This document shows, piece by piece, positions 39,625 to 40,419 of a stretch of DNA of 64,000 nt; position 1 is the first letter of the stretch; the number at the start of each line of letters is the position of its first letter. The position numbers and the translations under genes were made by a program. The notes beneath the pieces are model-generated. The model was given only the letters and a program-made list of their open reading frames with translations. It was not told the origin of the DNA and searched no databases. The stretch lies in the NCBI RefSeq assembly GCF_022846255.1, contig NZ_AP025682.1; one strand, written 5' to 3'. The DNA is from Escherichia coli. Lineage in GTDB: Bacteria > Pseudomonadota > Gammaproteobacteria > Enterobacterales > Enterobacteriaceae.

Positions 39625-40419
39625 TCATAATAATTGCGGCGGCGCAAAGCGACGGTTGTTTAAGACGGGCAGTTGCGCGCGCACCTGACGCACACGTTCG
39701 GGCGTCACTTCCGCCATAATGAGTGAAGGCATTTCTGACGCTGCCGCAATGGTGACGCCAAAGGGATCTATAATCCGGCTTTGCCCGATATTTTTGTTCC
39801 CGCACTCCCCCGCCGCCACCATATAACAGGTGGTATCCAGCGCACGAGCGGCAAGCAACGTTGACCAGTGATGCTCTTTGAGCGGCCCGCGAACCCAGGC
39901 GGCAGGAAGTACCAGGATTTCAGCTCCCTGTAATGCCTGTGCCAGCGCCAGCTCTGAAAAGCGTAAGTCATAACAGGTCATCAGACCGACCTTCATCCCT
40001 TCCACCTCCAGTAATGGAGCTATTTCATTACCAGCATCAACATGGCGTGATTCCTGAATGGCAAATGCATCATAGAGATGAAGTTTGGCATAACGGGCAA
40101 CGATGTTTCCTGCCTGAAGTGCCACCAGCATATTCCATGCGCGCCCCGGTGTTGAAGGAACATGAATCGTCAGAATTGTCGTCATCATGTTACGTTTACT
40201 TTCTCGCCGTAAACGTCCGAGGAATTCGCCTTCCAGCAGCTGTGCTGATTTAACCGATAGATCTGCATCATGATCATCACGCGCCAGCAATGCTTCCGGC
40301 AGGACAAACAGCGATACGTCGTTTTCCGCCGCCTGCGCCATCAACGAGGCACAAATCTCAGCGTTCTTTTCCCACACAGATGTCACAGCAAACTGTCCTG
40401 CAGCAACCAGCATTGCCAC
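39625..40419 (-). CDS. ybeM: C-N hydrolase (nitrilase superfamily) protein, intact
   Basis: 264 aa; nitrilase-type catalytic residues inferred (E in FVLPE, K in YAKLHLYD, C in [12 protein letters not shown]). Confidence 0.85.

Follow-up and report, generated by a model that had tools for sequence, protein, structure and literature searches.

In the reference strain Escherichia coli K-12 MG1655, ybeM is a pseudogene that RefSeq flags as "frameshifted" (ACE168_RS03265; presumably b0626). Is the gene intact in the strain analyzed here, and does its product still work? Both the gene and its defect in K-12 are already known. The window, i.e., the whole stretch of 64,000 nucleotides of E. coli DNA that was analyzed, very probably carries an intact core-genome copy of ybeM for a Nit1-type deaminated glutathione (dGSH) amidase, which is free of the deletion found in K-12 and has a proline-to-serine replacement at residue 153 (Pro153Ser) that is private to its lineage. 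An open reading frame is no proof of an active enzyme, as the serine allele reminds us.

The ybeM reading frame

The open reading frame (ORF) at positions 39625-40419 of the window is uninterrupted on the minus strand and counts 264 amino acids in the ORF list if translated from a GTG codon. While the original prediction of an open frame was borne out, the length of 264 amino acids that came with it was not. The sequence upstream of the start reads ...GACAGGAGGTGGCAATG..., in which an AGGAGG motif overlaps the GTG and lies 5 nt before an ATG, and therefore the true start is most likely this ATG at 40413, with a product of 262 amino acids:

40419..40424, minus strand: Shine-Dalgarno sequence (AGGAGG) that overlaps the GTG at 40419 and precedes the ATG at 40413 by 5 nt, as read from the sequence
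39625..40413, minus strand: ybeM coding sequence (CDS), 262 codons plus the stop at 39625-39627; predicted deaminated glutathione amidase, a Nit1-type CN-hydrolase

The annotation pipeline PGAP starts a 789-nt ybeM CDS at the same ATG in strain TCM3e1, the nearest genome for ybeM, and in E. coli B REL606. Antisense and overlapping ORFs within 39560-40437 were rejected as spurious, having no homology support and lying inside a conserved CDS.

The window gene is the ybeM ortholog, located between tatE and crcB as is usual in the Enterobacteriaceae, and the gene order lipA-tatE-ybeM-crcB-cspE-pagP is identical at the K-12, TCM3e1, and REL606 loci. YbeM of TCM3e1 (WP_001330455.1), which represents the common allele, has the same locus, length, and context as the window protein and differs from it at one residue. 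Of the 5,426 complete genomes of E. coli, 5,423 contain DNA of ybeM at no less than 95% identity, which places the gene in the core genome.

The K-12 frameshift and its spread within E. coli

Over 1,021 nt, the window and MG1655 are 98.5% identical at the DNA level, and their alignment contains 14 substitutions and a single 1-bp deletion in K-12, where GTAAACGTCCGAGG of the window reads GTAAAGTCCGAGG:

40214: base deleted in K-12, C on the plus strand and G in the sense of the gene, present in the window; codon 67 of the 262-aa protein

Beyond residue 66, the K-12 frame is shifted and meets stop codons in the next 10 or so codons, and it is the absence of this 1-bp deletion that keeps the window frame open. 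The disruption of ybeM in K-12 stated in the original prediction is thus confirmed by the RefSeq flag and the deletion located by the alignment, and K-12 has no intact frame identical to that of the window.

Allele frequencies were counted as exact matches of 60- or 61-mers. The K-12-allele 60-mer across the deletion was found in 860 of the 5,424 complete genomes, including isolates from humans, chicken, dog, bovine mastitis, and river water; one of the 860, from Galapagos seawater, has the same deletion and is also annotated as frameshifted. The window 61-mer at this site matched exactly in 3,622 complete genomes, with most of the others differing by single-nucleotide polymorphisms (SNPs). 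A frameshift specific to K-12 is rejected on account of the 860 genomes that share it, as is one common to all phylogroup A strains, since ybeM is intact in REL606. The frameshift marks a subclade that accounts for about 16% of the complete genomes, and the intact gene represents the ancestral condition of E. coli, to which most strains still conform; published work on the uropathogenic strains UTI89 and CFT073 likewise assumes that they have a ybeM ORF. The proposed use of the intact gene as a marker of a non-K-12 source holds insofar as it excludes K-12, but it is otherwise a weak lineage marker because intactness is the majority state and extends to REL606.

An independent disruption of ybeM, unlike the 1-bp frameshift, occurs in the O166:H15 strain JNE21-003 (NZ_AP041809.1), where an IS21-family element (istA/istB, ISEc62 family) has inserted into the 3′ end of the gene and leaves a ybeM CDS of 726 nt (locus positions 1-1399 and 1473-2198). 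The existence of both the frameshift clade and this truncation shows that E. coli can clearly do without ybeM, and relaxed selection on the gene is therefore plausible in the window lineage too.

Family, fold, and catalytic residues

The 264-aa ORF matches the Pfam CN_hydrolase profile (PF00795) over residues 5-247 with an E-value of 2.9e-40 and 138.6 bits (cut-off 23.2), covering profile positions 2-255 of 256. An AlphaFold model of the window YbeM, made with a 107-sequence alignment (A1) as input, was obtained with a pLDDT of 96.9 and a pTM of 0.94 and displays the four-layer alpha-beta-beta-alpha sandwich fold. Residues are numbered here on the 262-aa protein, with two to be added for the numbering of the 264-aa ORF. 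The following codons specify the active site:

40294..40296, minus strand: Glu40, catalytic general base, FVLPE motif; invariant in A1
40084..40086, minus strand: Lys110, catalytic lysine, YAKLHLYD motif; invariant in A1
40051..40053, minus strand: Glu121, QES motif; present in 105 of 105 enterobacterial and 112 of 114 distant homologs
39973..39975, minus strand: Cys147, catalytic nucleophile, TCYD motif; invariant in A1

All four residues are invariant across the 105 enterobacterial homologs. Among the distant homologs, a set of 114 representatives at roughly 32-48% identity, Glu40 is found in 112 (the other two have gaps) and Lys110 in 113. The Glu-Lys-Cys triad named in the original prediction accordingly occupies invariant or near-invariant columns in both sets. 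We take Glu121, and not the glutamate of RFxE, to be the second active-site glutamate of the Glu-Lys-Glu-Cys tetrad of the nitrilase superfamily. In the model, Cys147 lies between a strand formed by residues 140-144 and a short helix at 148-151.

If YbeM follows the mechanism that is standard for the superfamily, Glu40 would activate the thiolate of Cys147 for attack on the amide carbon of the substrate, Lys110 and Glu121 would stabilize and position the tetrahedral intermediate, and a thioester would be formed and subsequently hydrolyzed. As a member of branch 10 of the superfamily with a putative role in metabolite repair, YbeM would in this way cut the amide bond of glutathione damaged by transaminases, yielding 2-oxoglutarate and Cys-Gly. 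The open frame, the family membership, the catalytic residues, the K-12 frameshift, and the allele frequencies are directly shown, whereas we infer this chemistry as well as, below, what YbeM acts on and how active it is.

A serine in place of the proline after the catalytic cysteine

The Cys motif quoted in the original prediction is present in the window and reads CYDLRFSE, with a serine, which went unremarked there, in place of a near-invariant proline six residues past Cys147:

39955..39957, minus strand: codon of Ser153, TCA where others have CCA (Pro); SNP at 39957, A instead of G on the plus strand

This base is the only one that differs from TCM3e1 over the aligned ORF region of 795 nt, and a query of 1,021 nt spanning ybeM is 99.9% identical to that strain. 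Pro153 is present in K-12, TCM3e1, REL606, PO06021, and JNE21-003. The exact 61-mer centered on 39957 is absent from all 5,418 complete E. coli genomes; 5,416 of these 5,418 records fall in the 95-99% identity band, with one mismatch each among the matches listed. The window protein therefore departs from the C-x5-P pattern (CYDLRFPE) by virtue of Ser153, which is no bar to membership in the superfamily, as the proline is a conserved feature and not a formally defining one. A literature search on a conserved proline in the nitrilase superfamily retrieved nothing.

The conservation of this proline comes close to that of the catalytic residues, and Pro153Ser could impair activity or folding. Position 153 is a proline in 104 of the 105 enterobacterial homologs, the sole exception being the window allele itself, and in 111 of the 114 distant ones, where serine never occurs; two of the other three sequences have alanine, and the third is a fragment with a frameshift. 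In a hidden Markov model (HMM) built without the window sequence, the probabilities at this position are 0.67 for proline and 0.04 for serine, so that proline is favored by 4.05 bits, and Ser153 lowers the score of the entire protein by 4.5 bits (from 328.8 to 324.3 bits). It could be imagined that the ORF is open while the enzyme is crippled, Pro153Ser inactivating or destabilizing YbeM through the turn or helix start after Cys147, in which case dGSH amidase would have been lost by a missense mutation in the window lineage in parallel to the frameshift of K-12. Besides the conservation and the profile preference, the absence of the allele from the 5,418 complete genomes, the repeated loss of ybeM in other E. 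coli, and the apparent decay of the neighboring ybeF in the same lineage all speak for this reading.

Several observations nevertheless argue against a crippled enzyme, which we regard as rather unlikely on balance. All four catalytic residues are intact, and there is no second disabling mutation, the rest of the protein being that of the common allele, for which the listing has over 1,000 contigs. The alanine at position 153 in two distant homologs implies that proline is not strictly necessary here. Residue 153 directly follows the short helix 148-151 in the model and is the first residue of helix 153-161, where a change to serine may be tolerated; serine is a good helix N-cap. The model is also confident (pLDDT 96.9), although AlphaFold predictions hardly respond to point mutations. 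In our judgment, the Ser153 form of YbeM is most likely still active, possibly with weakened activity, and we consider a substantial loss of activity due to Ser153 the less probable outcome.

Inferred substrate

The assignment of a function to YbeM rests on secondary citations and on NCBIfam. The product passes the NCBIfam model for deaminated glutathione amidase (NF033621) with 447.7 bits against a cut-off of 355, over profile positions 2-260 of 260. The top PDB matches by sequence are NitFhit of Caenorhabditis elegans and Nit2 of yeast, both of which are said to be Nit1-type enzymes. Foldseek returned TM-scores of 0.85-0.91 for structures of Nit2, Nit3, NitFhit, and N-carbamoylputrescine amidohydrolase (CPA), the best structural matches being Nit2 of yeast and Kluyveromyces lactis and mouse Nit2 (0.89-0.91). 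The eukaryotic Nit1-type structures (1ems, NitFhit; 4h5u and 4hgd, Saccharomyces cerevisiae Nit2; 7elf, K. lactis Nit2) share the fold with the window YbeM (TM-scores of 0.88-0.91) as well as the E-K-E-C active-site residues, while sequence identity is only 27-31% and YbeM has neither the Fhit fusion nor the N-terminal extension. Both 1ems and 4h5u read CYD[VI]RFPE from the catalytic cysteine onward, whereas the window allele has RFSE.

The equation of YbeM with NIT1/dGSH amidase is made in PMC8788347. In the passages of PMC7041631 that cite Peracchi et al. 2017, Nit1-type amidases are described as hydrolyzing deaminated glutathione, which arises from side reactions of transaminases, and loss of the enzyme is described as tolerated in several organisms.

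A branch 10 amidase with another main substrate instead of dGSH, such as an omega-amidase acting on 2-oxoglutaramate like mammalian Nit2 or E. coli YafV, would have the same fold and catalytic residues. Fold alone does not reveal specificity inside branch 10, and mouse Nit2 and yeast Nit3 were retrieved at similar scores in the fold and sequence searches. However, YafV and mammalian Nit2 represent a separate paralog with another substrate, and the ybeM product reaches only 57 bits in the model for YafV-type amidohydrolases (NF007757), far below its cut-off of 249, while it clears that for dGSH amidase. Taken with the reportedly Nit1-type top sequence matches, this makes a different main substrate quite improbable, and dGSH amidase is the preferred assignment.

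Source lineage and authenticity of the allele

Over 24 kb (28000-52000), the window is only 99.2-99.3% identical to its best matches among complete genomes, and the source lineage therefore has no close complete relative in RefSeq; it is clearly not K-12. Since ybeM itself is 99.9% identical to a strain other than these best matches, namely TCM3e1, the region 28000-52000 looks mosaic.

Contigs of DRR322657, DRR102846, and GCA_005387665.1 match the window at 100% identity over 2.9-6.8 kb, and the Ser153 protein is deposited exactly as WP_137502041.1, BDH34312.1, and GDA59604.1. The allele is rare: in the cluster listing, 3 contigs carry this protein, whereas the Pro form is found on more than 1,000. 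The Ser153 allele is thus real and is shared by no fewer than four public assemblies from one lineage. That the Ser153 codon or the open frame could stem from a sequencing or assembly error, as a single-base change seen in no complete RefSeq E. coli genome might suggest, is extremely improbable and was rejected in view of these identical independent assemblies and exact protein deposits, and of an open frame that is the majority state of the species. The contigs identical to the window carry DRR run and BFRP accessions, i.e., prefixes of the DDBJ type.

A further gene nearby appears to be affected by decay. In K-12 and REL606, ybeF is a gene of 954 nt between lipB and lipA, whereas the gap of about 820 nt (37408-38226) between lipB (36766-37407) and lipA (38227-39192) of the window contains no full-length ybeF ORF, the longest ORF piece being 113 aa (37667-38008). 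Gene callers predicted no gene in the lipB-lipA gap of two matching public contigs, and this gene for a LysR-type regulator appears to have decayed in the window lineage. The neighborhood of ybeM in REL606 (locus positions 33155-36450 and 39317-41488) accumulates strain-specific pseudogenes of its own: ybeQ is interrupted by an internal stop, djlC carries a frameshift, and an IS150 element splits gltL.

Surroundings and regulation

On its upstream side, ybeM is separated by a short spacer from a gene on the opposite strand:

40414..40505: divergent intergenic region between ybeM and crcB, 92 nt, from the ORF layout and the annotation in related genomes
40506-40889, plus strand: crcB/fluC, divergent from ybeM

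This spacer presumably holds the promoters of both genes. A scan with consensus promoters and terminators around ybeM performed no better than on shuffled sequence, and the promoter scan of the spacer gave one consensus-like site only, on the plus strand. Downstream, tatE follows on the same strand after 128 nt. No riboswitch or other RNA element adjoining ybeM or crcB was detected in an Rfam scan of 38000-42500; apart from sub-threshold noise at the terminator of lipA, the scan returned only a thermoregulator of the cspA type, located at cspE. The thermoregulator match (40895-41343, minus strand) exceeds the gathering score with 136 bits, extends over both the 5′ leader and the coding sequence of cspE, and is expected for a paralog of the cold-shock proteins.

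A published ChIP peak of the regulator NsrR lies 345 bp into ybeM in CFT073 (PMC5320621). Across the 64 kb of the window, the NsrR half-site AAGATGCATTT has a single match, which agrees at 10 of 11 bases, lies at 40063-40073 on the minus strand, 341-351 nt into ybeM, and coincides with this peak; alone, it is not significant, as 2.2 such matches are expected per window.

Significance

What is added here to the known gene and its known defect are the corrected start codon, a frameshift that extends well beyond K-12, and the lineage-private Pro153Ser allele, and beyond annotation the finding at ybeM has little importance. It does identify K-12 as an atypical strain at this locus, as most E. coli keep an intact amidase for the repair of dGSH. 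Because ybeM is atypically broken in K-12, metabolic models based on this strain omit a reaction of most strains.

Pro153Ser might itself be a natural loss-of-function or hypomorphic allele and a third independent route to the loss of dGSH repair in E. coli, a tentative proposal that we find somewhat doubtful. If true, the three routes would be the missense mutation described here, the 1-bp frameshift of the K-12 clade, and the IS21-family truncation in JNE21-003; such a pattern would argue that selection on dGSH amidase in E. coli is weak or fluctuates, and the near-invariant proline after the catalytic cysteine would be functionally required. The rare allele would also lend itself, conveniently, to a natural test of this conserved proline in enzymes of the nitrilase superfamily.
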